Position numbers and translations under genes: made by a program. The notes under the pieces were generated by a model. It worked only from the letters and a program-made list of their open reading frames with translations, ran no database searches and was not told the origin of the DNA. Below, piece by piece: positions 2,397-20,805 of a stretch of DNA of 22,970 nt (position 1 is its first letter; each line of letters begins with the position of its first letter). Source of the DNA: an uncultured Candidatus Poseidoniales archaeon (GTDB lineage Archaea > Thermoplasmatota > Poseidoniia > Poseidoniales > CAYMED01); the NCBI GenBank assembly GCA_964389655.1, contig CAYMED010000026.1, positions 1 through 22,970 of the forward strand, read 5' to 3'.

Positions 2397-2535
2397 GCAA
2401 TTCATTATTCATCATTACACTTGAGTTCTTCCACCAGAGAACTACACCTTTGGAAGCAAGAAAAAAATAGGCGAGGCGGAGCAAAAAAACATTTCGAAAG
2501 GCAATGGTGATGGAGTGCGAACCCCACTGCGGCTC

Positions 2536-4359
2536 ATGGCGAATGCTGAGGTAAGCGAGGCGGAGCGGGAGAAAGCAATCAAGGGATGGTGCCTCTATGA
2601 TTGGGCGAATTCGACCTTTTCAACCTCGGTTGTCGTTGCGATTTTACCGGTATATTTTGTATTTTTATTCCAACAGGCAAATGGGACAGAAACCTCGATT
2701 CTTGGCATAAAAGTTACTGCATCTAGCATGTGGGCTTGGGGAGTCACATTCGCCTCAATTGTTGTCGCCATCATATCCCCTGGACTGGGCATCATAGCCG
2801 ATCGAGTGCCCATCAAGATGCTCCTGATGCGTATTTTCACGGCCATAGGTGCGGGGGCAACGGTCCTATTTGGTGCAACTCTCTTCTTCTCATATAATTG
2901 GGCATGGATCTGGGTTTGGATTCTTTTCCTTGTAGCAAATCTTGGATTTATGGCTGCAACCTCAGTATACAATTCCTTGCTGCCACATCTTGGAAATGAC
3001 GATGAGATGGACCGAATATCCAGTAGGGGATTCGCGTGGGGATACATTGGGGGAGGCCTATTGCTAGTCATTCATCTTCTGATGGTTACGGTGATCGTGG
3101 ATGAAGCGGGCAGCACGCAATCATGGGTCGTGCCCTTTTGCTTGGCTAGTGCAGGTGCATGGTGGTGGGGTTTTGCAATCCTCACATTTCGATGGATACC
3201 TGAACCTGAAATCGAGAACCAAATGGAGCCCATGGGTGTCATGGATGCGACAAAACTTGCGGTATCTGAACTCAAAACAACGCTAAGTGAGATCGGACGT
3301 TTCCGTACGCTTGTCTTCTACCTAGTTGCCTATTTGCTTTTCATTGACGGTGTCAATACAGTTGTCAATCTAGCAGGAGTATTTGGGGCTGATGAATTGG
3401 GTGTTGCCCTGACATTCAACATGCTTGTAATCCTCTTGATACAATTTACTGCTGCACCTGCCGCCATGCTTTTTGCTACAATTGCTGAGCGAACCTCTAC
3501 GAAAGCAGCCCTTACTGCAACTCTGATTGGCTGGTGCCTCGTTATTTTCGCAGCGGTAGGCTTTGCACCGCTAGAACTCGATGCACACGAGGAACATGAC
3601 ATACAACTGGACTGGGATAACTCGACATCGAATTATACTGTGTCCATCCTTGATTCTGGAAGAGTCGCTTTGGGACAATCATCCCAGGATCAAGTACTCC
3701 GTGGAGCACACGGAGATATACTTCCTCTCAATGAAAATGGGGATTTCAACACCTCTGCAACAGGAAGCGCAAATGAGACTGAGGCTGCGATGCTCCTTGC
3801 TGAGATACATGACACACGTTGGTCAGTTGCACTTCGAGGAGGTCCCATAGACAGCACAAATGGGTCTTGCCCGTTATTTCAGGCCAATGTCCCAAGCACA
3901 TCACATCCAGCTGATTGTCGCATTCTCGGCACCGAACATCCCACTCATCTAGGAGACGGGGCAGTCGATGTTATTCCAACAACCATGCGAAGCTGGATTT
4001 GGAGTCCTCTAGGTCTATCGATCAATTTGCAGTGGCTTGTATTGGGCCTTCTCGGCGGCCTCATGATGGGCGGCAGTCAGGCACTTGCACGTAGCATGTT
4101 TGGCATGATGATCCCGGAAACGCGCTCAACTGAGTTCTTTGGCTTCTTTGGCTTCACACAGAAAGTTGCGGCAGTCACTGGCCCACTTATGTATGGCATT
4201 ATCGTGGCAGTGTTAGATGCGAGAACAGCAATTCTCTCAATTACACTCCTCATTGTGATCGGCACAGCAATGCTAACTCGTGTGGATGTAGGAAAAGGCA
4301 TCCAAGATGCAAAAGACGAAGATGAGCGGCGAAGAGGGCTAGCCTCAGAAAGTGAATGA
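2536..4359 (+). CDS. MFS transporter, Atg22/UMF1 (BtlA-like) family, with a large inserted hydrophilic loop
   Basis: Family motifs WCLYDWANSTF, YNSLLP, ISSRGFAWGYIGG, LFIDGVNT, GGSQALARS and EFFGF, with about 12 hydrophobic segments. ATG 2536 (MANAEV) is preferred over GTG 2515. Confidence 0.88.
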   Translation: MANAEVSEAEREKAIKGWCLYDWANSTFSTSVVVAILPVYFVFLFQQANGTETSILGIKVTASSMWAWGVTFASIVVAIISPGLGIIADRVPIKMLLMRIFTAIGAGATVLFGATLFFSYNWAWIWVWILFLVANLGFMAATSVYNSLLPHLGNDDEMDRISSRGFAWGYIGGGLLLVIHLLMVTVIVDEAGSTQSWVVPFCLASAGAWWWGFAILTFRWIPEPEIENQMEPMGVMDATKLAVSELKTTLSEIGRFRTLVFYLVAYLLFIDGVNTVVNLAGVFGADELGVALTFNMLVILLIQFTAAPAAMLFATIAERTSTKAALTATLIGWCLVIFAAVGFAPLELDAHEEHDIQLDWDNSTSNYTVSILDSGRVALGQSSQDQVLRGAHGDILPLNENGDFNTSATGSANETEAAMLLAEIHDTRWSVALRGGPIDSTNGSCPLFQANVPSTSHPADCRILGTEHPTHLGDGAVDVIPTTMRSWIWSPLGLSINLQWLVLGLLGGLMMGGSQALARSMFGMMIPETRSTEFFGFFGFTQKVAAVTGPLMYGIIVAVLDARTAILSITLLIVIGTAMLTRVDVGKGIQDAKDEDERRRGLASESE

Positions 4360-6508: not shown

Positions 6509-7975
6509 ATGACGAACTACGGATTCGTCATCGACAACCGCACATGCATTGGTTGTCATGCGTGTACCGTTGCTTGTAAATCTGAGCACAACATACCCGT
6601 CGGCGTCAACCGAACGCACGTCAAATATATCGAAAAAGGAGTGTATCCAAACACGACAAGAGAATTCAGTGTTCATCGGTGTAACCACTGCGAAGATGCA
6701 CCCTGTGCGACGATTTGCCCAACCACGGCCCTATGGACACGTGCAGATGGAATCGTCGATTTTGATGATGAAAGGTGCATAGGATGCAGATCATGCATGC
6801 AAGCCTGCCCATATGATGCACTCTACATCGATCCAAATCAGGGAACTGCTGCAAAGTGTAACTATTGCGCTCACAGAATTGAAGAATCATACGAACCTGC
6901 ATGCGTCATCGTTTGTCCCACTGAATCAATCACGTCTGGAAATTTGGATGACCCCTCTTCAAAAATCGCCAAATTGGTGGCAGAAAATGAGACGAGAGTA
7001 CGAAAGCCTGAGGCATTAGCAAAGCCAAATGTATACTATCTGAGTACAAGCCAAGAGATGCTCAATCCTGAAGCAACAGCATGGAAAAGTGGGGGTATGT
7101 GGACCGAACAAGAAGCAGGTGTAGGCCATTTTGCAAAGTATGCGAGTAAACGAATCGAAGCATCGGATACACCATCGATGCTTGTTCAACTGGCTCTAGA
7201 GAAAAAGGCAAAAGAAGCCGCGCCTCGAGACCAAGCAATCATTCGAGACGTGGCCTCAAAATTGAGGCAAGACGGTGCAAATCCAAAGCGAGTCTACGAT
7301 CAACCCTCTAAAGGCATCTTGTGGGACTCAGAGGTCGCTGGATATATCATCACCAAGGGAATCGCATCTGGACTCTACCTGTTTATGCTTCTTGGCGCAT
7401 TGTTGCTCAGTGACGAATATCTTGCAGAGTCAAATTTCATTGCCATCACCGGAAGTATAATTCTTATCCTGATGGGGTTAACAGCCCTTCTTCTCGTGAA
7501 AGATTTGGATCGACCAAAGAGATTCATCTACGTCTTGTTGCGGCCAAATTTCAAGTCATGGCTGGTAAAAGGAGGGTATATTATTGGAGCGTTTTCAACG
7601 ATCGTCTTGTTACAAGTCTTGGTTGATATAACGGGTCTAGACCCAAATCTTCACTATTTTCTATTCTTCATCGGAGCCCCTTTGGCATGGATGACGGGTA
7701 CATACACAGGTTGGCTACTGAAGCAGGCAAAGGGTAGGACGGAATGGGCGGGTAGAAGTGGAATTAGAATCGCAGTTACGGGTACATTTGAGTTACTCTA
7801 CCTCGGATTCCTAATCCCTGCTTTGGCCCTTTTGCAGGGGGGGACCCCAAACCCAGAATTCACACAGGAGATACAACTTTCCACCCTCGGAGTGGTTTGG
7901 ATGCTCATGCTTATCCTCGGATTTAGGCATATCCGAACAGACCTGAGAAAGGCACAAATGGTGCCACTATTGTAA
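6509..7975 (+). CDS. 4x[4Fe-4S] electron-transfer subunit (DmsB/NrfC/PsrB-like) fused to an NrfD/PsrC-like membrane anchor
   Basis: CIGCHACTVAC, CNHCEDAPCATICP, CIGCRSCMQACPY and KCNYC...PACVIVCP clusters. The C-terminal membrane part carries the NrfD-type DLDRPKRF and SWLVKGG motifs and about 6 hydrophobic segments. Confidence 0.92.
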   Translation: MTNYGFVIDNRTCIGCHACTVACKSEHNIPVGVNRTHVKYIEKGVYPNTTREFSVHRCNHCEDAPCATICPTTALWTRADGIVDFDDERCIGCRSCMQACPYDALYIDPNQGTAAKCNYCAHRIEESYEPACVIVCPTESITSGNLDDPSSKIAKLVAENETRVRKPEALAKPNVYYLSTSQEMLNPEATAWKSGGMWTEQEAGVGHFAKYASKRIEASDTPSMLVQLALEKKAKEAAPRDQAIIRDVASKLRQDGANPKRVYDQPSKGILWDSEVAGYIITKGIASGLYLFMLLGALLLSDEYLAESNFIAITGSIILILMGLTALLLVKDLDRPKRFIYVLLRPNFKSWLVKGGYIIGAFSTIVLLQVLVDITGLDPNLHYFLFFIGAPLAWMTGTYTGWLLKQAKGRTEWAGRSGIRIAVTGTFELLYLGFLIPALALLQGGTPNPEFTQEIQLSTLGVVWMLMLILGFRHIRTDLRKAQMVPLL

Positions 7976-7979
7976 TGGG

Positions 7980-10730
7980 GTGAATAAGTTGGTAAAACGT
8001 TCAATCATTGAAAAATTTGCTGAGGCAGTTAGAATCATTCCAAAAATTTCAACGCGGGAACCACCAAACACCGAAGAAAAAACCCTACGACGATATCCCA
8101 AACCTTCCCAATGGCACAATCACACTGAATTCGATGCAAACGCTTGGCCTAAACGTATCAAGCGAAACTACTCCCTTATTCCAACAACCTGCTTCAATTG
8201 TGAATCTGCCTGCGGACTATTGGCCTATGTTGACAAAGATTCGAAAGAAGTGTCAAAATTTGAAGGAAATCCACATCATCCGGGTAGCAGAGGCAGGAAC
8301 TGTGCCAAAGGGCCTGCAACAATCAACCAGATACAGGATACTGAGCGTATTCTTCACCCCTTACGAAGATCCGGTGACCGTGGATCTGGTGAGTGGGAAC
8401 AAATTACCTGGGATGAAGCACTCAACGAAATTTCTTCCAAAATCCGTGCATCCCTAAAGACCGGTGCAAAAGATAGGGTTGTATACCATGTCGGAAGACC
8501 AGGGCATGAAGGTTACACCAACCGTGTTCTAAAAGCATGGGGAGTTGATGGACATAATAGCCACACCAATATTTGCTCAGCTGGCGCAAGAACGGGATAT
8601 GCTCTTTGGCACAAGTTTGACCGGCCATCACCAGATCATGCCAATGCGAAAGTGATCCTTCTGACCTCATCACATCTTGAAACAGGACACTACTTCAACC
8701 CACATGCACAAAGAATCTTGGAAGGGATGATGGATGGTGCCAAACTCATCGTGATTGATCCTCGACTTTCCAATACTGCTGCTATGGCAGACCACTGGAT
8801 ACCTACTTGGCCTGGTTCAGAACCGGCTCTGTTTCTGTGCTGGGCACGCATGATTCTCGAGAAGAAACTCTACGATCGAGAGTTCCTCCACGACTGGGTG
8901 AATTGGGCAGATTGGTTATCAACTTGCCATCCCAACGAAGCACAGACATTTGAGCGCTTTATTGAGCTCCTCGTCGAAGAATATTCAGAATATACACCCG
9001 AATTTGCAGCCAAAGAATGCCAAATTCCAGTAGAACAAGTGATTGAAACGGGTGAGATTGTAGCGAATGCGGGTAGCCAATTGTGTACCCATGTGTGGAG
9101 GTCCGCTTCCATTGGGAACCTTGGAGGATGGCAAGTATCTCGAACATTGCATTTTCTCAATGTGCTAACTGGTTCAGTAGGGACCAAGGGAGGTACTGCA
9201 CCGAATTCGTGGGCCAAATTTAAGCCTGAATTGTTTGATGTACCCCCCGATCCGGATGGGTGGAATGAGTTGCATTTCCCTCCAGAATATACGCTCTCAC
9301 ACTACGAAATGAGCCATATCCTCCCACATTTGATCAAGGACGGGCGAGGCACGATGGATGTATACTTCACCCGGGTGTTCAATCCAGTATGGACCTATCC
9401 CGATGGATTCTCTTGGATGGAGATGCTTCAGAATGAAAAATCCATAGGTTGCCATGTGGCACTCACCCCAACTTGGAATGAAACAGCATTTTTCGCCGAT
9501 TATGTGCTTCCAATGGGCCATGCATCGGAGAGGCACGACATCAACTCCTATGCAACTCAGGCTGGAAAATGGGTTGCATTCAGACAACCTGTTCTTCGCG
9601 AATATGCAAGACGAGAGGGTAAAAAGGTTGAATTCACCTATGAGGTAAATCCGGGTGAAGTATGGGAAGAAGACGAGTTTTGGATTGAACTTTCATGGAG
9701 AATCGATGACGGAAGCATGGGGATCAGAGAGCACTTCATGAGTCCCTATAGGGAAAGAGAAAAAATCACGGTTGACGAATATTATCGCTACACGTTTGAG
9801 CGAGTACCCGGTCTAAAAGAGACGGCTGAAAAAGAAGGACTAGATGCACTTGAATACATGAAGAAACACGGAGCATTCCTGATTGAGCCATCGATCTATA
9901 GCAAACACGAACTGGAAGGATGGCCAACTCCGAGTGGAAAACAAGAGTTCTACTCACACACCATGGTCGAATTTGGATACCCCGAACATGCCATACCACA
10001 TTACAGAGTCAAAAGTCATGTTCATCCATCAAAATTAGCTGGTGAAAATGAATATTGCTTACTCCCTAATTTCCGACTTCCGCAACATATCCATTCTCGC
10101 TCTGCAAATGCGAAATGGCTTGTCGAAATTGCACACAAGAACCCAATATGGATTCATCCAAAAGATGCTACACACCTTGGAGTCAAAGAAGGTGAATTAT
10201 TGAAAATTGAGACTGAAATTGGCTGGTTTGTAGACAAAGTTTGGGTAACCGAGTCGATCAAGCCTGGCGTGGTGGGCTGCTCCCATCATATTGGGAGATG
10301 GCGAAGAAAGCAGGATGCTGGAAATCGCTTTCTTACCAATACGGTATCTATTGAGGAGCACGATGGAAAAATGAGGATGCGCACATTAGAGAGTGTTCGC
10401 CCTTGGAAGTCAGTAGATCCTGACACAAGTCGAATTTGGTGGAGAGATGGCGGTGTTCACCAAAATATCACACACGCGGTCCAACCAGACCCAATTAGCG
10501 GAGCACACTGCTGGTTACAAAAGGTGCGACTGACAAAGCCCGGCCCTGGAGAAAAATATGGTGATGTTGAAGTGGACCGAAAGAAATCATTTGAATACTA
10601 CAAAAAATGGAATCAATGGGCCATCTCAAGAGAAACGCATCCAAGAAACGAACGGCGCCCAATGTGGATGAACCGCCCACTACCCCCACGCAAACAACAT
10701 TGGCACCTTCATTCAGATAATTCTGAATAA
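7980..10730 (+). CDS. Mo/W-bisPGD (DMSO reductase superfamily) oxidoreductase catalytic subunit, substrate unknown
   Basis: FS0 motif CFNCESAC...CAKG, HPLRR, ITWDEAL, HTNICS (probable Cys metal ligand), VIDPRLS, ETAFFADYVLP and C-terminal HIHSRS...IWIHPKDA. GTG start 4 nt after the upstream stop. No Tat signal is evident. Confidence 0.93.
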   Translation: MNKLVKRSIIEKFAEAVRIIPKISTREPPNTEEKTLRRYPKPSQWHNHTEFDANAWPKRIKRNYSLIPTTCFNCESACGLLAYVDKDSKEVSKFEGNPHHPGSRGRNCAKGPATINQIQDTERILHPLRRSGDRGSGEWEQITWDEALNEISSKIRASLKTGAKDRVVYHVGRPGHEGYTNRVLKAWGVDGHNSHTNICSAGARTGYALWHKFDRPSPDHANAKVILLTSSHLETGHYFNPHAQRILEGMMDGAKLIVIDPRLSNTAAMADHWIPTWPGSEPALFLCWARMILEKKLYDREFLHDWVNWADWLSTCHPNEAQTFERFIELLVEEYSEYTPEFAAKECQIPVEQVIETGEIVANAGSQLCTHVWRSASIGNLGGWQVSRTLHFLNVLTGSVGTKGGTAPNSWAKFKPELFDVPPDPDGWNELHFPPEYTLSHYEMSHILPHLIKDGRGTMDVYFTRVFNPVWTYPDGFSWMEMLQNEKSIGCHVALTPTWNETAFFADYVLPMGHASERHDINSYATQAGKWVAFRQPVLREYARREGKKVEFTYEVNPGEVWEEDEFWIELSWRIDDGSMGIREHFMSPYREREKITVDEYYRYTFERVPGLKETAEKEGLDALEYMKKHGAFLIEPSIYSKHELEGWPTPSGKQEFYSHTMVEFGYPEHAIPHYRVKSHVHPSKLAGENEYCLLPNFRLPQHIHSRSANAKWLVEIAHKNPIWIHPKDATHLGVKEGELLKIETEIGWFVDKVWVTESIKPGVVGCSHHIGRWRRKQDAGNRFLTNTVSIEEHDGKMRMRTLESVRPWKSVDPDTSRIWWRDGGVHQNITHAVQPDPISGAHCWLQKVRLTKPGPGEKYGDVEVDRKKSFEYYKKWNQWAISRETHPRNERRPMWMNRPLPPRKQHWHLHSDNSE

Positions 10731-12863: not shown

Positions 12864-15800
12864 ATGAAAGAGGGAAAGGCTAGTGCCATTCCTGCAGTGA
12901 CTGAGAAAAGCACATGGTCGCTAGCAATTGCAGGAACTGCTGTCATCCTAGCTCTCATCATCAGTCTATCAATGTCGATGACTTGGGCAACAGCATCTAC
13001 AAAATCAACTGAAGGAGAGGGAGATGATATCGAAGTAGAAGAAAATCAAATTTCAGTATCACCTCATGCGATCTCTATACGCAATGATGACATTGCTGAA
13101 TCCATTACGGGTTCTCCAAATTTCACAGTCTCTGAGCCAAAAACTAGCTCCGATCGATCAGAACTTGAGCGCCAGGCAAGTCCACAAACCGCAGACCTCG
13201 TTGAAATGATGGGGAAAATCGATGCACGGCTAGATTTTGCTCGATTCCTCATGCTGATGATTGCAGGAATCGCAATTGCGCGTGCTCTTTCTCCATCAAA
13301 AGTTGCAATTCTGCGACATGCACCGATTGCAGCCCTAGCGGCCATAGCAGGAATTACAATGCTAGTTTCCCTTTCACCAATTGGTGACTTAGGAGAGGCA
13401 ATGGAAGATTTCTTTGAACTCGGAGATCGAAGTGGCGTTGATGACGAAATGTATGGGGGCTATTCGGGTGAAATGGATGGGACATTTACTGCCGTAAGGG
13501 ATGTAGAAATCTCGTGGGGCCCAAGCCTCATGCTCATCTTTGTCATCATCATTTCTTTGGGAGTGCTTGCATTAGCCGGAGCAGAAATTCTCGCATGGGC
13601 AATGACAAAAGAGGCAGAAGAAGCGGGCTTGGACGAAAGTCAAACATTAGCCCACAAATATGCACCACATACCCTTATCGGCCTTGTATCAGTCATCGCG
13701 GGTTTGCTTTTCGCAACCCAAATTATGCCTTGGTTTACATTCGAGCAAACACACAATGCCGATTTTGGAACAGGATCGGATGAAGACATCCAGCAAGGTT
13801 CATTCAAGTGGTCGGCAGGATTGTGGAGGGGAAGTGAAACCAATGATAGTTTCTATGCCGACCGAAATCTTTCAGCAACAACAGAGCCACTGGAACGAGG
13901 CCCTGGTGGGCCTATGCCATTGGTGACTTCAGCAATTGATGGATATCGTTGGACAACATTGGCACTTCTAGGACTCTCACTTCTCACCATAGGTATACTT
14001 GCTGTTGGACTGACACCTGAACGAGTGCGTGAGCGCAGAATCGGAATAGGAATGGCCCTTTTACTTGCAATATCAATTCCATTTACACTCGGCGCTGCTG
14101 AAGGTGAAATGGCAGAAGCATGGATTAGTGATTCTTCAAGAATTACAATTGATGGAGGACCCTCATCAAGCGGAATTTTCAACACCGGTTTAGATTCACA
14201 CCAAATTTCATTCGCTTTTGGCCCAGAAATCGGTTTTGTTCTGCTTGAAAGTTCATCTCATGCCGGATTTGGCATTACGGCAATTTCCATGGCAACAGGA
14301 TTTGCTTGGATTCTTCTGCTATCAATTATGGCTCTTCTATTGGCAGGGGGATCTTCAGATGGCCCCGCTTCACTTCAGGGGTGGGTTATTTCACAGCGTG
14401 CGCGCGCACGTGCATGGGGCATTCCATTGCTGCTATTTTGCAGCATCATGTTTGGAATATCTGCTGCAAGTGAATTCCGCATTGAAGGGCTAGGAAGGGG
14501 TGTAGACATCTACCACGACCACATCGTTCAATCTGTAGATCAGGATCTTCTCGTCCTCTCAAATGAAAGTGTGAAAGGAGCATGGCAAACATCGAGCATT
14601 GAAATCTCATCTGCTGAAATGCTAGAGCATCAGAGCGTCGAAAGCGGGACGACGAGTGAACTGGCAGATGTATTGGATGATCTCACGTTTTGGAAGGGGA
14701 TAATCACAGTTCTTTGCATGATTCTTGCAGGATTGTGGATTGTAAGTTTAGTTTCAGCTCCTTCAAGCACTGGAAAGCAGGCCCTCCCATTTATGCTCGT
14801 ATGCATTCTTCTTTCATTGGCTTCGGCCATGTGGATTATGGCGCAAGGAGATATCAGCGAGGCATTCCTAGATGACAACAAGATCACAAATGACGATGGA
14901 GTCGATATCAATCGTGGGCGCTGGGGCCATGTAAGAGGTGAAGGATTATCGGTCCCTTGGGAAGTAGGGCCGGCATTTTGGTATGCTGTTGCCATGATCG
15001 GAATAGCGATTATCGTAGCATTGAGTCATGGTGCCGAATTGAATACGAAATTGCGCGAGACTCCCGCCCATATGCCTTGGACATTTGACGGAAGTTTAAC
15101 CGAAGGAGCGCAATTACATGATCGAATCTCAATCGCTGAAGATCGAGAGGCTCTTCTAGCCACTGCACTCGCAGGCATGGCCTGTTTTGGCCTATTAATG
15201 GCTTCAATGACGGCATGGTATGTGCGAACTGACACGGTTCCCATCCAGAGGCCAGAATCCTATGAGGGAGAGCATTTCTCAAATGCAACATGGACATGGA
15301 AGGCTGGACTTTGGGGTTTATCCTTCACAAATTCCTCTTTTGAGAATTGGGATAATGGCAATGGGACGATCGAAAGCACGACTGTGAAGAGTGGAAATGG
15401 CTCAGAAGTGGGAATACCAAATGTCGACCGACTCATGAGTACACTACGAACGCCGATCATTACAGGAATCATCGTTGCGGGCACAGGTGCTGTGCTGATA
15501 TATGGCCAGTCGAGGGAGAAAATGGGTAACTTGCTCGGTGACCGCCGGGGCCTCTGGATCATCGTGTTTGCATCTCTCATGCTTATCATCGAATTTGGAC
15601 TGGTTGATACGTCAGAACATCTCTCAAATGCAGTTACAAAAGATGGGACACCGGTTGCTTCAGGTGAATTATCTGGATTTAATGAACAAGTGATTGGAGA
15701 CCAAGGAAGGATCATAGATGCAGGATTTATTCAGTCAGATCCATTTCACTCAACGAGTGGAGATGTTGCAGCCATTGAATGGGGCTATGGCTGGGCCTAT

Positions 15801-16592
15801 TCCGGCGTGAATTTCGCAAGACTTTGCACATGGCTTGGAATGACAGCATCACTCACTGCATTAGCCGCTGCATCCAGCACTGAGAAACGATGGTTAGATT
15901 TGAAGTCGTGGAAAGGTCCTGCTCCGATAAGCATCCTAAGTGTATGTGTCGTATTCGGAATCATAGGAGCAGGAACTGGTAATTTTGTAGCCAAAGATGT
16001 TCTTGGAATCACTGAAGGTATTGATGGTGATGACGGCATGAATGCGTATAGGGTTTCTTTTGACACGCTTCAAACAAGTGTGGATGATTCAGAAAATCTA
16101 GCAAATGATCAAGAATTGAGCATCACATTCACCCCATCTTCAGAGGGTATAGGAAACATTACCGCAGTCTCCATATCCATTGACTGTGCAGAACAACAGC
16201 AAGGTTTTCCACAAGAGGATGAAGATGAGATCGAGGTAACCATCACCCCCCCCCAAGGGTATGCAAGATCTCTTGCAACTCATGTTGCAAGCAGGACACT
16301 AGCAATGAGCGAATGCCCACTGCAAATTGAGTATGAATTAGAAAAGGACAAGGACCCAAGAGAAGGGGATCGAAACGCACGCGCATCTTCCAAAGAAAAG
16401 GCTGCTGCAGGTTTCACAGTGGATCTATTCGATGCACCTTGGCAAGTGAAGGCAAAAGCCATTGCAAAGGGCGATGGCGCCATAAACGGCCTCGGCGCAG
16501 ATGATCAGACAGGGGTGAGTCTCCAAATCAATGCAATTGGCTACACGGTAGTGGCTGAAAGAATCGCTGATGATGCAGAAGGCGCAAACTAG
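12864..16592 (+). CDS. Large hypothetical polytopic membrane protein (1242 aa): four tandem 4-TM units + 17th TM + extracellular C-terminal domain
   Basis: Long ORF with about 17 hydrophobic segments in a repeating pattern, recurring motifs, basic short loops and acidic, sequon-bearing long loops (see findings). Confidence 0.85.
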   Translation: MKEGKASAIPAVTEKSTWSLAIAGTAVILALIISLSMSMTWATASTKSTEGEGDDIEVEENQISVSPHAISIRNDDIAESITGSPNFTVSEPKTSSDRSELERQASPQTADLVEMMGKIDARLDFARFLMLMIAGIAIARALSPSKVAILRHAPIAALAAIAGITMLVSLSPIGDLGEAMEDFFELGDRSGVDDEMYGGYSGEMDGTFTAVRDVEISWGPSLMLIFVIIISLGVLALAGAEILAWAMTKEAEEAGLDESQTLAHKYAPHTLIGLVSVIAGLLFATQIMPWFTFEQTHNADFGTGSDEDIQQGSFKWSAGLWRGSETNDSFYADRNLSATTEPLERGPGGPMPLVTSAIDGYRWTTLALLGLSLLTIGILAVGLTPERVRERRIGIGMALLLAISIPFTLGAAEGEMAEAWISDSSRITIDGGPSSSGIFNTGLDSHQISFAFGPEIGFVLLESSSHAGFGITAISMATGFAWILLLSIMALLLAGGSSDGPASLQGWVISQRARARAWGIPLLLFCSIMFGISAASEFRIEGLGRGVDIYHDHIVQSVDQDLLVLSNESVKGAWQTSSIEISSAEMLEHQSVESGTTSELADVLDDLTFWKGIITVLCMILAGLWIVSLVSAPSSTGKQALPFMLVCILLSLASAMWIMAQGDISEAFLDDNKITNDDGVDINRGRWGHVRGEGLSVPWEVGPAFWYAVAMIGIAIIVALSHGAELNTKLRETPAHMPWTFDGSLTEGAQLHDRISIAEDREALLATALAGMACFGLLMASMTAWYVRTDTVPIQRPESYEGEHFSNATWTWKAGLWGLSFTNSSFENWDNGNGTIESTTVKSGNGSEVGIPNVDRLMSTLRTPIITGIIVAGTGAVLIYGQSREKMGNLLGDRRGLWIIVFASLMLIIEFGLVDTSEHLSNAVTKDGTPVASGELSGFNEQVIGDQGRIIDAGFIQSDPFHSTSGDVAAIEWGYGWAYSGVNFARLCTWLGMTASLTALAAASSTEKRWLDLKSWKGPAPISILSVCVVFGIIGAGTGNFVAKDVLGITEGIDGDDGMNAYRVSFDTLQTSVDDSENLANDQELSITFTPSSEGIGNITAVSISIDCAEQQQGFPQEDEDEIEVTITPPQGYARSLATHVASRTLAMSECPLQIEYELEKDKDPREGDRNARASSKEKAAAGFTVDLFDAPWQVKAKAIAKGDGAINGLGADDQTGVSLQINAIGYTVVAERIADDAEGAN

Positions 16593-16653
16593 GTAATTTC
16601 TCCGCATCGTTAAAGATACCAATTATTATGACTGCATACACAACCGCAGTATT

Positions 16654-17604
16654 ATGTCGAAATTGTTGCGAGCAACTGCGGCTGGCCTCCTGATTGCTGC
16701 ACTATTCATGCCTTGGTTCACCATTTACCAAGAATCCGAAGCATCGTCAGATGGAACGACTCAAATCACGTCAACACGCACTAAATACGGACCTGACCGA
16801 ATTACGGAAATGACATCCATGGAAATGAGCAAAAATAATGACAAAAGTGCAGCCTACACGGGTGAGTCTCAGTCAATACGCCATACTAGCGCGTTCTCCA
16901 TTGAGTGGTCGGCAGCTACTGTTCTATTTGCCTCTATACGAACGCTTCTGCTAATTGCACTTTGCGTATTGGTACTCGATGTATTGATCACAGGGATCTC
17001 TGAAGATGCATCAACCCGCATGGGACCCGTGCTAGGTATCATGGCTACAGTAGCTGCTGGCTTGGCATTTGGAATGTTTATGATGGGGATGGTCAATGCA
17101 GTTGAGAGCGATGGAGATAGTCTAATCTATGAATCAGATGATGGAGATGCAAATGATGTGGGACGGCGCGAATTGATCGAGGTGAAGTGGATTATTGGGA
17201 TGGGGTCGCTTCAGGATGATGACAGCGCCGTGATTGGCACCGAAACAGTTGCGACCAAGGTGAAAAGTAGTTGGCGCCCAACTTCTGGTGCATTGGCTGG
17301 ACTATTGGGATTCATCGTATGCGCAGCAAGTTCTTCCGACATCAAATCAATCCAAAACATGATGGGATCATGGAAGGAGAAGAAGCAGCAAAAGAAGGCT
17401 GCATCCGCAGCACAACAACTCGGCATCCCGCAACCAGAAGCGGCTCTTGGTGCACCTGCAGTTCTACCTGCTGCTGCACCAATGGCACCGCCAGCAGTTC
17501 CTGCTGCTGCCATGCCAACTCATGCAGCGCCACCTGCGGCACCCGCTATGCCAGTGCAGGATCTAGATTCGATCCCAATCCCACCGCCACCAGGGCCTGC
17601 TTGA
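16654..17604 (+). CDS. Hypothetical 4-TM membrane protein with Lys-rich then Pro/Ala-rich C-terminal tail; single-unit paralogue of the upstream repeats
   Basis: TM1 ends FMPWFT (cf. IMPWFT upstream), SIRT precedes TM2, GMVNAVESD follows TM3, SWRP precedes TM4. The tail runs KEKKQQKK...APAVLPAAAPMAPPA...PIPPPPGPA. Confidence 0.85.
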   Translation: MSKLLRATAAGLLIAALFMPWFTIYQESEASSDGTTQITSTRTKYGPDRITEMTSMEMSKNNDKSAAYTGESQSIRHTSAFSIEWSAATVLFASIRTLLLIALCVLVLDVLITGISEDASTRMGPVLGIMATVAAGLAFGMFMMGMVNAVESDGDSLIYESDDGDANDVGRRELIEVKWIIGMGSLQDDDSAVIGTETVATKVKSSWRPTSGALAGLLGFIVCAASSSDIKSIQNMMGSWKEKKQQKKAASAAQQLGIPQPEAALGAPAVLPAAAPMAPPAVPAAAMPTHAAPPAAPAMPVQDLDSIPIPPPPGPA

Positions 17605-17605
17605 A

Positions 17606-20600
17606 TCAGCGATTTTTCTTCGCTGCTTTCTTGGCCTCTTTCTCATCCTTCTTCATGTGACATTTTCGGTACTTTTTGCCACTTCCACAATGGCAGTCAT
17701 CATTGGGAGCGGGAGGTTTCCTCACAGTGGGCTTGTTTGTAGCTGCTTTGGCTGCTTGTTCTGCATCCCTCTCTCGCTTTTTCTCAGCACGAAGGGTCTT
17801 GAGATCCTCACTTGAGAGATTCTTGAAGAGTTGTTTCTCCTCTTCAGAAACCATGCCATCTCCATCGAGATCCATGGGGTTTTGAGAAGGTCGCATGGGT
17901 CCAGGGCCTGCTGTCTGCATCGGCCTTGCACCTCCGCCACCATATGGAGGGGCTGCCACCTCAGAAGTCCCTCTGCCTCCACGCGCGTCCCCCCCACTGC
18001 GCAGTGAGGCGCGCTTGGCCTCTTCTGCTGCCTTCCGAGCATCTTCAGCTGCCGAAGATAATTCATCCCTTGCTGCATTGATTCCTTCTAATGCCTGATT
18101 GACAAGATCGTCACCACTAACCTTTGATGCAAAACCTAACTGCTCCATTCTCTTCTCAATTTGCTCCATCAAGTCCCCATATCCACCACGGGGAAATTTA
18201 CCTTTGTCATTGACTCTGTTGATATCATCAACAAGCGATTCAAGATGATTCTTCCTGGAAGCCTTGTTGATCTTTTTCTCAAATTTCTTAACCCTCTTAT
18301 TCTTCGCTCGCTCGCTGCGTGCAAGAATCATTCGGATAATGAAACCGATGACTGCAACAGCAGCACTCGCAACTTGTCCTTGAGGTGATTCAAAAAATGA
18401 GACTGCTTTTTGGACAAATGGATGCGCCATGATTTTTCCAAACAAATCATCAGGTGGTTGACCCTCCTCAGCCTGCTTTGATGATTCAACTGAAGAAGTG
18501 TTGTTATCTGTTGTCTGTGTTGTGTTATTTGACGGGCCTTCTCCAATTTCACATCCAAATGCATCTACAATTGCAACACCGATTGAAGTATTCGCGCAAT
18601 TATCGTTGAGATCAGAAACGCCATCGACATCTGCATCTGCACATCCTAATCGGTCGTCCCAACTGACGCCAAAGTCATTTGGACAATCATCTGGATCAAT
18701 ACCTGATTGATTATCGCCATATCCATCACCATCAAAGTCCGCCCATTGAGTTGGCTCATCTGGAAAAGCATCAGCACTATCTGCAACACCATCGCCATCT
18801 CGATCACCGCCGGAAGCATACGTCGAAATGAGGCAATCATTGTCTTGTATGGATAAGCCCGGGCCATGCAATTTTGCAATTAAGCAATAAGGCCCAACCT
18901 CGCGAATACCTGTTAAATTGAGCTCAAAATATCGAAACGTAGGGTCCATCGCATTGGTGATAGAATAAGACGAATTTGAGATTTCTAAGCCACTGTAAGT
19001 CCAATTTATTTCCAGTGTATACGAGGTTGTTTGAGAAAGGCCTCGAAGATCAATTTCGACATCAATGAGATCATCAAAGTCGGTTAAATTAACACCAATA
19101 GAGAGTGAAGGATTATTGTTACCTGCCCCCCCATTTCCGAAAGGCGCACAAGCCGCAAAAATGTCAGCATCTGCTGATGTCCCTGAATTCTTTGACAAAG
19201 TGGTCTGTCCAAACGTCAATTGGGAACTCGTAAATTCACCCACAAGGCAGGGTTTCCCCCGATCATCCAATGCCAAATCATGTGCCATTTCATCTCCAGT
19301 GGAGCCCCAACTTGCAGTCCCATCGATCATACCACCATGCTTCACCCTAGCTGCAAAAATATCGTCTCCACCCTGATGCATTAGGGTTTCAGATCCAATC
19401 GTGATGTCATCGCCAAATGTGCCTGATACGATGACATGCGTGGAAGTTACTGCAATCGAATTGGCTGAATCATCATCTGGGCCACCCGCACTAACACCCC
19501 ACTTCTGATTGCATAGGTTGTCATATTTGACGAGAAATCCGTCATCCATCCCTTCAGAATTAAGCATCGTAGATGAACCATAATCCACTTCAACTGCAAA
19601 GCGTCCTGCTACGTAAGTATCCCCATTATCATCATTTCCAATCGCAAGTCCAACTTGGGGACCATCCCCCGTCATTGCAGCCATGCAGTCATCGATATCA
19701 CCAAATACAGGGTCAAGAAATAGGACAAATGCATCACCACCTGAAGAACCACTCACCTCCATTTGGTTAAGTCCTGATGAGTCAATCATTTTCAGGAGGG
19801 GTGAAGAAAATTGACCCGTTACGGCAATCGTGTTTTCCACACTGTTGTAGGCAATTGCATTGACCCGATCATCAGCAGTACCTGCAATGAAACTTACCCA
19901 CTCACAGTAGCCACTATCATCAAATTTAGCTACATAACCATCATTTCCACCTTGCTCATTATCGTAGTAATTGACCCCTCCGGAATAATCACAACTCAAA
20001 TTTGAGCCGCTCACAAATCCTCCCACATAGATGTCGCCAGATGAGTCAGAGGTGATGGAATGGACTTGGTCTGCATTAGAACCAATCAGACTAGAAGCCC
20101 ACTTCCATTGGCCATCGTCTGTTTTTAGAGTGGCAACAAAGACACCGCTATTATCAGTTAGAGTATGTGATCCAAATGTAATCTGTTGGGAATCAAATTG
20201 TCCAGTAATGTGGAGTTCATCCTCTGCATAATTGAGTGCAATCCCTGAAACTGAATCTTGTAACATGCCTCCAACACTTACTGCCCAATCCCATGTCCCC
20301 GTGCTGTCAAGTTTGGCTACAAAGAAATCCATTTGACCCGCCGGGCTCAGTTGCTGTGAGCCAAACGCTAGATTATTTGATCGGAAATTACCAGCAATGT
20401 ACGCATCATTAGCCGAATCAATCACAACTGAATTCGCAGATTCAGCGCTAGAGCCACCAATGGTTAAAGCCCATGTAAGTTCAGCGCGCCCATTGACCTC
20501 GCGTAACGCGCTGATTTGTGCAAGAGTCAAATTAGGTCCTTGAGAATCGGACTCGGTCCGCATTTCCACCCCTACAATAAGTGAAGCAAGAACAAGGGTT

Positions 20601-20641
20601 GCGACCAGCAATATTGATCGAATTTGGAAACGAGTTCTCAT
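17606..20641 (-). CDS. Membrane-anchored surface protein: beta-propeller (SBBP-like) + TSP3 repeats + TM + cytoplasmic coiled region, EF-hand and SEC-C motif
   Basis: Likely start MRTRFQIRSILLVATLVLASLIVG (ATG 20641). Repeats such as DFFVAKLDSTGTWDWA, DGYVAKFDDSGYCEW and DGFLVKYDNLCNQKW; DRDGDGVADSADAFP and DFDGDGYGDN; TM VASAAVAVIGFIIRMILA; DLDGDGMVSEEE; PNDDCHCGSGKKYRKCH. Confidence 0.9.
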   Translation of the reverse strand: MRTRFQIRSILLVATLVLASLIVGVEMRTESDSQGPNLTLAQISALREVNGRAELTWALTIGGSSAESANSVVIDSANDAYIAGNFRSNNLAFGSQQLSPAGQMDFFVAKLDSTGTWDWAVSVGGMLQDSVSGIALNYAEDELHITGQFDSQQITFGSHTLTDNSGVFVATLKTDDGQWKWASSLIGSNADQVHSITSDSSGDIYVGGFVSGSNLSCDYSGGVNYYDNEQGGNDGYVAKFDDSGYCEWVSFIAGTADDRVNAIAYNSVENTIAVTGQFSSPLLKMIDSSGLNQMEVSGSSGGDAFVLFLDPVFGDIDDCMAAMTGDGPQVGLAIGNDDNGDTYVAGRFAVEVDYGSSTMLNSEGMDDGFLVKYDNLCNQKWGVSAGGPDDDSANSIAVTSTHVIVSGTFGDDITIGSETLMHQGGDDIFAARVKHGGMIDGTASWGSTGDEMAHDLALDDRGKPCLVGEFTSSQLTFGQTTLSKNSGTSADADIFAACAPFGNGGAGNNNPSLSIGVNLTDFDDLIDVEIDLRGLSQTTSYTLEINWTYSGLEISNSSYSITNAMDPTFRYFELNLTGIREVGPYCLIAKLHGPGLSIQDNDCLISTYASGGDRDGDGVADSADAFPDEPTQWADFDGDGYGDNQSGIDPDDCPNDFGVSWDDRLGCADADVDGVSDLNDNCANTSIGVAIVDAFGCEIGEGPSNNTTQTTDNNTSSVESSKQAEEGQPPDDLFGKIMAHPFVQKAVSFFESPQGQVASAAVAVIGFIIRMILARSERAKNKRVKKFEKKINKASRKNHLESLVDDINRVNDKGKFPRGGYGDLMEQIEKRMEQLGFASKVSGDDLVNQALEGINAARDELSSAAEDARKAAEEAKRASLRSGGDARGGRGTSEVAAPPYGGGGARPMQTAGPGPMRPSQNPMDLDGDGMVSEEEKQLFKNLSSEDLKTLRAEKKRERDAEQAAKAATNKPTVRKPPAPNDDCHCGSGKKYRKCHMKKDEKEAKKAAKKNR

Positions 20642-20805
20642 CGAATGTACCGAGTTCCGCAGGGAATGTTCAGCCATCACGCCTACAGGATGCATGAGCA
20701 CGCATCAAGTGGCTCATTTATCGACTTGTCCCGAAATATGGGGAAAAACAAACTGGACGCAAGACCCTTGAGGTCGAACGGTTTCGGCCAAATCGGGTCG
20801 CAGGC

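Follow-up and report, generated by a model that had tools for sequence, protein, structure and literature searches.

Tight junctions, the compaction of myelin, and the regulation of ion channels all depend on proteins of the claudin/PMP22/TARP fold. Whether two adjacent genes of an uncultured Candidatus Poseidoniales archaeon (Thermoplasmatota, CAYMED01) encode membrane proteins of this fold, and whether their products belong together, is the question raised by the locus considered here, which lies on contig CAYMED010000026.1 of assembly GCA_964389655.1 (the stretch of 22,970 nucleotides that was analyzed as a whole is referred to as the window). The large gene (12864-16592, +) encodes a protein of 1242 amino acids (aa), and the co-oriented small gene (16654-17604, +), separated from it by a gap of 61 bp, encodes a protein of 316 aa. 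An initial annotation of the sequence proposed that four claudin-like units in the large protein form a single-chain pseudo-tetramer, which co-assembles with the small protein as a fifth, monomeric unit. Both reading frames and all 23 motifs quoted in that annotation are present at the positions given there. A neighboring thiolase shares 72-82% identity with its Poseidoniales counterparts, which places the organism in Marine Group II. The analysis described here points to a predicted claudin fold outside the Pfam claudin families, an (A-B)x2 order of units in the large protein, behind which come a 17th helix and a predicted jelly-roll domain outside the cell, and a pairing of the two genes that is probably incidental.

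Architecture and predicted fold of the two proteins

The claudin/PMP22-like fold proposed initially is upheld by structure prediction, in which models of the 316-aa protein and of unit 4 of the large protein were compared with known structures by Foldseek and by an independent aligner. The AlphaFold model of the 316-aa protein, built with an alignment of 58 units of the family, has a predicted local distance difference test score (pLDDT) of 88.7 and a predicted template modeling score (pTM) of 0.84, and its elements run from the N- to the C-terminus as helix, strands, helix, helix, strand, helix, with the strands of the sheet located within residues 22-76 (loop 1) and 197-209 (before the fourth transmembrane helix, TM4). 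All 50 matches listed by Foldseek for this model are proteins of the claudin fold (TARPs, DUOXA1, GARLH4, GSG1L, and claudins 3, 4, 9, and 19), and the independent aligner gave Z 14.5 to DUOXA1 (181 residues aligned, root-mean-square deviation (rmsd) 3.8), 13.8 to claudin-19 (152 aligned, rmsd 3.1), and 13.6 to TARP gamma-7 (160 aligned, rmsd 2.7); plain helical bundles reach Z 12-14 too, with only about 100 residues aligned. The AlphaFold model of unit 4 (pLDDT 70) gave Z 12.5 to TARP gamma-7, with 176 of 181 residues aligned at rmsd 3.2, and Z 11.4 to MP20. A four-helix bundle with an extracellular sheet, formed by the loop-1 strands and one strand before TM4, is predicted in both models, and units 1-3 are considered to share the claudin fold by homology. 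The closest shapes in the ESM Atlas belong to archaeal clusters without a name (template modeling score 0.70-0.78), followed by claudin families (0.58-0.64), and a search of a viral structure library gave no match at E 0.001 or better. One of the Atlas clusters, from Thermoplasmatota and 790 aa long, contains a GreA/GreB domain and resembles the unit with a score of 0.78 across 217 residues.

The large protein is not composed of four units alone, as had been described initially, a 17th helix and a beta domain of approximately 190 aa having been left out. The units occupy aa 17-247 (unit 1; 12912-13604, +), aa 268-495 (unit 2; 13665-14348, +), aa 509-721 (unit 3; 14388-15026, +), and aa 763-1003 (unit 4; 15150-15872, +), and are joined by short cytoplasmic linkers of 22-44 aa. 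Hydropathy recovers 15 of their 16 helices in a 1+2+1 pattern per unit, and the last, TM4 of unit 4, is weak by hydropathy and helical in the structure model. The 17th transmembrane helix (aa 1020-1038; 15921-15977, +), supported by hydropathy and the model, is conserved in a two-unit family described below and leads to the closing domain, which is predicted to be an extracellular jelly-roll beta-sandwich of the GOLD/PPC-like kind (aa ~1060-1233; 16041-16562, +; 70 bits to the family profile). The model of this domain, for which Pfam gives no match, reaches Z 10.2 to the GOLD domain of TMED1 and 9.8 to the C-terminal domain of Tk-SP, with approximately 100 residues aligned. Its own pair of cysteines, invariant across the family (here aa 1108 and 1151), presumably forms a disulfide. 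Jelly-roll-like domains are also found in short proteins without claudin-fold units.

In the small protein, a single predicted claudin-fold unit (aa 1-232; 16654-17349, +), with four helices by hydropathy, is followed by a cytoplasmic tail (17350-17604, +) whose composition is Lys-rich and then Pro/Ala-rich, with 19 Pro and 22 Ala within 86 aa; Pro-rich tails are present in other single-unit members of the family as well. Given an N-terminus inside the cell, all nine N-x-S/T sequons of the large protein fall in loops predicted to lie outside, where most of the acidic residues are also found, the outer loops being strongly acidic. A topology with cytoplasmic termini and the sheet outside is predicted from these sequence features. 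The membrane helices are poorly conserved in the alignment of 58 units, and no polar residue at mid-membrane is conserved within the helices.

The sequence signature of the family, counted over 58 units, consists of P-W-(Y/F) after TM1, with Pro in 46/58, of a loop-2 Gly present in 55/58, and of W-G-P before TM4, with Trp in 54/58. An Arg at the entry of TM2 occurs in 14 of 15 units of type B (defined below), in the 316-aa protein, and in its orthologue, and is not conserved in single-unit proteins found across the phylum. The claudin loop-1 motif is described as W...GLW together with two cysteines in the arrangement G-phi-phi-G-x-C(n)C (PMC5962676). The GLW part of this motif, which the initial annotation had read in units 2, 3, and 4, is confirmed in units 2 and 4, both here and in the one further genome that the genus comprises (the sister genome); it fails in unit 3, where "VKGAW" aligns out of register with the GLW of the other units, and it is not a family-wide feature, the consensus of the B family being W-x-M-x-P-F instead. 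The loop-1 cysteines are absent from all five units, as was reported from the outset, and the arrangement G-phi-phi-G-x-C(n)C is not found in them. Some archaeal members carry a Cys pair late in loop 1.

Searches of Pfam and NCBIfam with both proteins returned nothing over the cut-off, with no match to any enzyme or transporter family, which is in line with the initial proposal. Matches below the cut-off recur among family members to the Pfam models Amastin, SUR7, Claudin_2, and Claudin_3, and the best claudin-model score of any member is 16.2 bits to Claudin_2, against a cut-off of 29.1. Membership of the Pfam claudin families (PF00822, PF13903, PF06653) was considered and rejected on account of the missing cysteine pair and of scores under the cut-offs; judged by their models, these are proteins of the claudin fold yet outside those families. 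Sequence searches of the Protein Data Bank returned hydrophobic noise and nothing else, and when single sequences were searched against sets of 1.84 and 5.8 billion proteins, the query itself alone was returned, the relatives described in the following section being recovered via genome searches and profiles.

Unit types, distribution, and history of the family

A search of related genomes led to a 750-aa protein in which two units precede an additional helix and a C-terminal domain of the kind seen in the large protein. With this protein as the query, strong matches were obtained in 17 other genomes among 300, to which a unit profile added four, and the two-unit form is the usual one (21/300 related genomes). 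The four-unit form is limited to the genus studied here, with a 1255-aa orthologue in the sister genome (L084:3715-7479, +), which contains an LDL-receptor class A (LDLa) module in loop 1 of its unit 3 (aa 556-584). Presence is patchy by genus, amounting to 0/48 in one genus and 8-9/43 in another. Across Thermoplasmatota, the unit was matched in 38 of 401 genomes, many of the matches being weak and clear one- and two-unit proteins being included, and the unit is present alone, in duplicate, or in fusion with zinc ribbons or with a PKD/Ig/CARDB array. The profile of the unit gave no full-length match in Asgard or Thermoproteota, for each of which 151 genomes were searched; partial and weak matches in 4/151 genomes of each sample, several with stops, were taken as background.

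The repeat within the large protein is weak when pairs of single sequences are compared (z 2-4.7) and becomes evident with profiles. Profiles of the A and B units were built from the two-unit family alone, with no sequence of the window included, and each was compared with approximately 200 window-shuffled sequences in which the hydrophobic pattern was kept. Unit 1 scored 44 bits and unit 3 scored 17 bits to the A profile, unit 2 scored 21 bits and unit 4 scored 46 bits to the B profile, and all four scores exceed every shuffled control, narrowly in the case of unit 3 (17.3 versus 15.8 for the best shuffle). The A and B profiles are themselves related (hhalign E 1.9e-11). By these profiles the order of units is A-B-A-B, with units 1 and 3 of type A and units 2 and 4 of type B, which sustains the repeat of four four-helix units proposed initially and sets aside the notion of four equivalent copies. 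The SQRAR motif that opens unit 3 is the motif found at the start of two-unit proteins; units 3-4 with the last helix and the closing domain correspond to a whole two-unit protein because unit 3 begins with this motif.

Phylogenetic trees place units 2 and 4 with the B units (99/96) and, in a smaller set, units 1 and 3 with the A units (91/90), the latter grouping losing its resolution in a larger set. Units 1, 3, and 4 each pair with their counterpart in the sister genome, and the four-unit state is therefore older than the split of the two genomes. A single clade of units 2 and 4 was not rejected (p 0.21) and the origin of all four units in one expansion met a borderline rejection (p 0.0497), and therefore the order of the duplication events is not proven. 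Formation of the four-unit form by duplication of an A-B pair before the split of the two genomes of this genus is supported, the direction being unproven.

The small protein, initially regarded as a fifth unit, is retained as such by its four helices, its claudin-fold model, and its match (E 1.5e-12) to a profile of distant single-unit proteins run on the genome, a profile that also matched unit 1 independently (E 1.9e-7). In trees it groups, though not firmly, among or close to the single-unit proteins found across the phylum, and is never sister to any one unit of the 1242-aa protein; on this phylogenetic evidence, it is no recent copy of any of the large-protein units. An apparent match to the small protein in L006 was discarded as spurious, being a PKD-type protein without the helices.

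Several further proteins were observed in the course of these searches. A protein that resembles the unit and has a SAP domain at its N-terminus (Pfam E 7.5e-11) is encoded in the same genome on contig C24 (L210:1240-2166, -); it contains an assembly gap, matches the single-unit profile at E 4.2e-6, and carries two cysteines late in loop 1, nearer the claudin signature than the units of the window. A 403-aa frame (G000:C4:11555-12025, +) shows a weak unit match (E 6e-4) and an apparent large insertion in loop 2. Two adjoining genes at L086 (G314) are tandem paralogues that both encode two units followed by an extended C-terminal region, and at L058 (G576) a single-unit gene with zinc ribbons is followed by two genes that are similar by eye. 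The two-unit gene at L023 / L041 (G197) is split into consecutive frames of 393 and 361 aa, the break lying within unit B. Single-unit proteins of approximately 262 aa (P0015-P0044), mainly from ENA metagenome assemblies, share a conserved Cys pair in loop 2.

Gene neighborhood and possible function

In the sister genome, the orthologues of the two genes are found on separate contigs and have different flanking genes, the large gene between GST-like and DsbB genes and the small gene between an amidohydrolase-domain gene and a NAD-kinase-like gene. The small gene was found beside the two-unit gene at 0/15 loci within the flanks fetched, some of which were short; the two-unit gene itself lies between a class I/II aminotransferase gene and a 204-aa gene in six genomes and at varied sites elsewhere. 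No conserved neighboring partner gene was found across 17 loci; partners of the eukaryotic auxiliary subunits need not be neighbors, so that a role of that kind is compatible with this result. The two genes constitute no conserved system, their adjacency here being probably incidental, and the initial proposal of a two-gene locus with co-assembling products is not sustained in view of the separate contigs, the unpaired loci, and the absence of sister branching in the trees. Two other genes of the window deserve mention. On the minus strand, 17606-20701 encodes a single-pass protein of 1031 aa that contains beta-propeller repeats and, at its C-terminus, a SEC-C motif above the Pfam cut-off, and which parts the small gene from the NAD-kinase-like gene, two genes that adjoin in the sister genome. 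At 2515-4359 (+), a transporter resembling the major facilitator superfamily shows, by eye, a hydrophilic insertion of approximately 150 aa before its last helices.

The interpretation tentatively preferred, at slightly less than even confidence, is that both proteins are non-catalytic, pore-less platforms for binding or scaffolding at the cell surface. They would represent an undescribed Thermoplasmatota family of claudin-fold membrane modules, in which every bundle of four helices carries an acidic and probably glycosylated beta-sheet on the outer side of the cell. The outer sheet and the modules inserted in it may bind to partners beyond the cell, for example polymers, particles, or proteins of the envelope, and two or four chained units with the terminal jelly roll could cluster several binding faces in one patch, the tandem units raising avidity or organizing the membrane patch. 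The 316-aa protein would be a separate, older member with a Pro-rich cytoplasmic tail in place of the jelly roll. Patchy presence and the lack of a dedicated operon partner fit such an accessory surface role, and the predicted fold and topology, the modular make-up of the family, the lack of conserved polar residues at mid-membrane, and the absence of enzyme or transporter matches also speak for it. Three points weigh against it: the best structural matches are mostly auxiliary subunits of channels or enzymes and not binding platforms, the fusion partners of distant members need not reflect the role of this protein, and the unit-4 model is of moderate confidence, with units 1-3 assigned their fold by homology.

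The same structural matches (TARP/Cav-gamma, LHFPL/GARLH, DUOXA) lend weight to the view that the proteins are auxiliary subunits or maturation factors of a specific membrane complex, with the helices packing on the partner and the extra units multiplying or tuning the contact. This is possible, although on the unlikely side. A molybdopterin oxidoreductase with an iron-sulfur (Fe-S)/NrfD-like membrane subunit (window 6509-10730; L184) lies at most two genes from the large gene, here and in one further genome (G014), but this neighborhood was seen at none of the 15 other loci, the sister genome included; moreover, a common fold proves no function, and the membrane helices that would pack on a partner are poorly conserved. 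An adhesive or lattice-forming role like that of claudins, in which the units polymerize laterally and meet copies on another membrane, appears improbable, whether as cell-cell or cell-vesicle contact, compaction as by PMP22 and MP20, or patches as formed by Sur7. The fold is that of claudin-4, -15, and -19 and MP20, and chains of one, two, and four units would be expected if an oligomer had become fused; against this, strongly acidic outer loops would disfavor like-to-like contact without cations, the claudin cysteine motif is absent, and the terminal jelly roll and the archaeal envelope would probably hinder close apposition. A broader form, in which the family is a prokaryotic claudin branch whose units oligomerize and whose one-, two-, and four-unit chains are a fusion series fixing a dimer or tetramer in an archaeal lattice or contact structure, is fairly unlikely. 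The pseudo-tetrameric channel co-assembling with the 316-aa protein, as proposed initially, is highly improbable: four units per chain, short cytoplasmic linkers, and co-oriented genes 61 bp apart would suit it, but two units are usual, no polar helix face is conserved, and the adjacency of the genes fails to hold even within the genus. Pseudo-tetramer packing as such, apart from any channel, is possible, the common form having two units. A complex prediction of units 1-2 with units 3-4 returned a score of 0.00, which amounts to "no answer" and was counted neither way.

Ancestry and comparison with known systems

With regard to ancestry alone, the likeness to claudins might be convergent, a four-helix bundle with a capping sheet having arisen separately, and this seems unlikely. 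Structure-based identity of only 8-17%, the lack of any member at the Pfam cut-off of the claudin clan, the scores of plain helical bundles, and the absence of full-length matches from the Asgard and Thermoproteota genomes agree with convergence. On the other hand, the claudin-fold matches span 150-190 residues including the sheet, versus approximately 100 in the case of plain bundles, strands and helices follow one another as in the claudin fold, weak Pfam matches recur on the same four models, and the late loop-1 Cys pair is kept in some archaeal members. Since the profile did not find the family in the Asgard genomes searched, simple inheritance through Asgard is without support here, and a widespread, modular archaeal family makes the origin of the fold testable as ancient fold, transfer, or convergence.

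Among known systems, the claudin/PMP22/EMP/MP20 proteins (PF00822, PF13903; 4p79, 3x29, 5b2g, 9cbv) resemble the units in the predicted bundle with its ends inside, the loop-1 strands plus one before TM4, the aromatic residue after TM1, and the Gly turn before TM4; an Arg at the start of TM2 is shared by nearly all B units and by the small protein, and is not conserved in the phylum-wide singles. The units here differ in lacking the cysteine motif and in having longer acidic loops and extra strands, and the proteins differ in having two or four units per chain, a 17th helix, a jelly roll, and an archaeal host. TARP/Cav-gamma/GSG1L, LHFPL4 (GARLH4), and DUOXA1 (9s41, 7rz5, 9faj, 7d3e, 6wxr), which are single units in eukaryotes, give the best scores (Z 12.5-14.5), with DUOXA1 covering the most residues (181-193 aligned), whereas no partner channel or enzyme is consistently encoded near the archaeal genes. 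Amastin (PF07344) and Sur7/PalI (PF06687), which have surface or patch-forming roles, provide the most recurrent weak Pfam matches, and, when language-model features are compared, Amastin is the closest cluster that bears a name (0.78); these families are eukaryotic and single-unit, however, and every match to them is under the cut-off. The GOLD domain (TMED1, 7rrm) and the PPC-type jelly roll of subtilases (Tk-SP 3afg, KP-43 1wmd) resemble the closing domain over approximately 100 residues at Z 9-10, in contrast to which the domain here has 190 aa, long insertions, its own Cys pair, and no attached protease domain.

[quoted passage not shown] A literature search, sparse for subscription journals, brought up no publication about claudin-fold proteins of archaea. 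Chains that naturally contain two or four units would reveal how such units can pack next to each other, which is hard to capture for claudins, and the Marine Group II archaea gain an unstudied, patchily distributed, predicted surface protein. To a known kind of fold, the locus adds tandem chains of two and four units that end in a predicted jelly-roll domain, as well as a map of the family.

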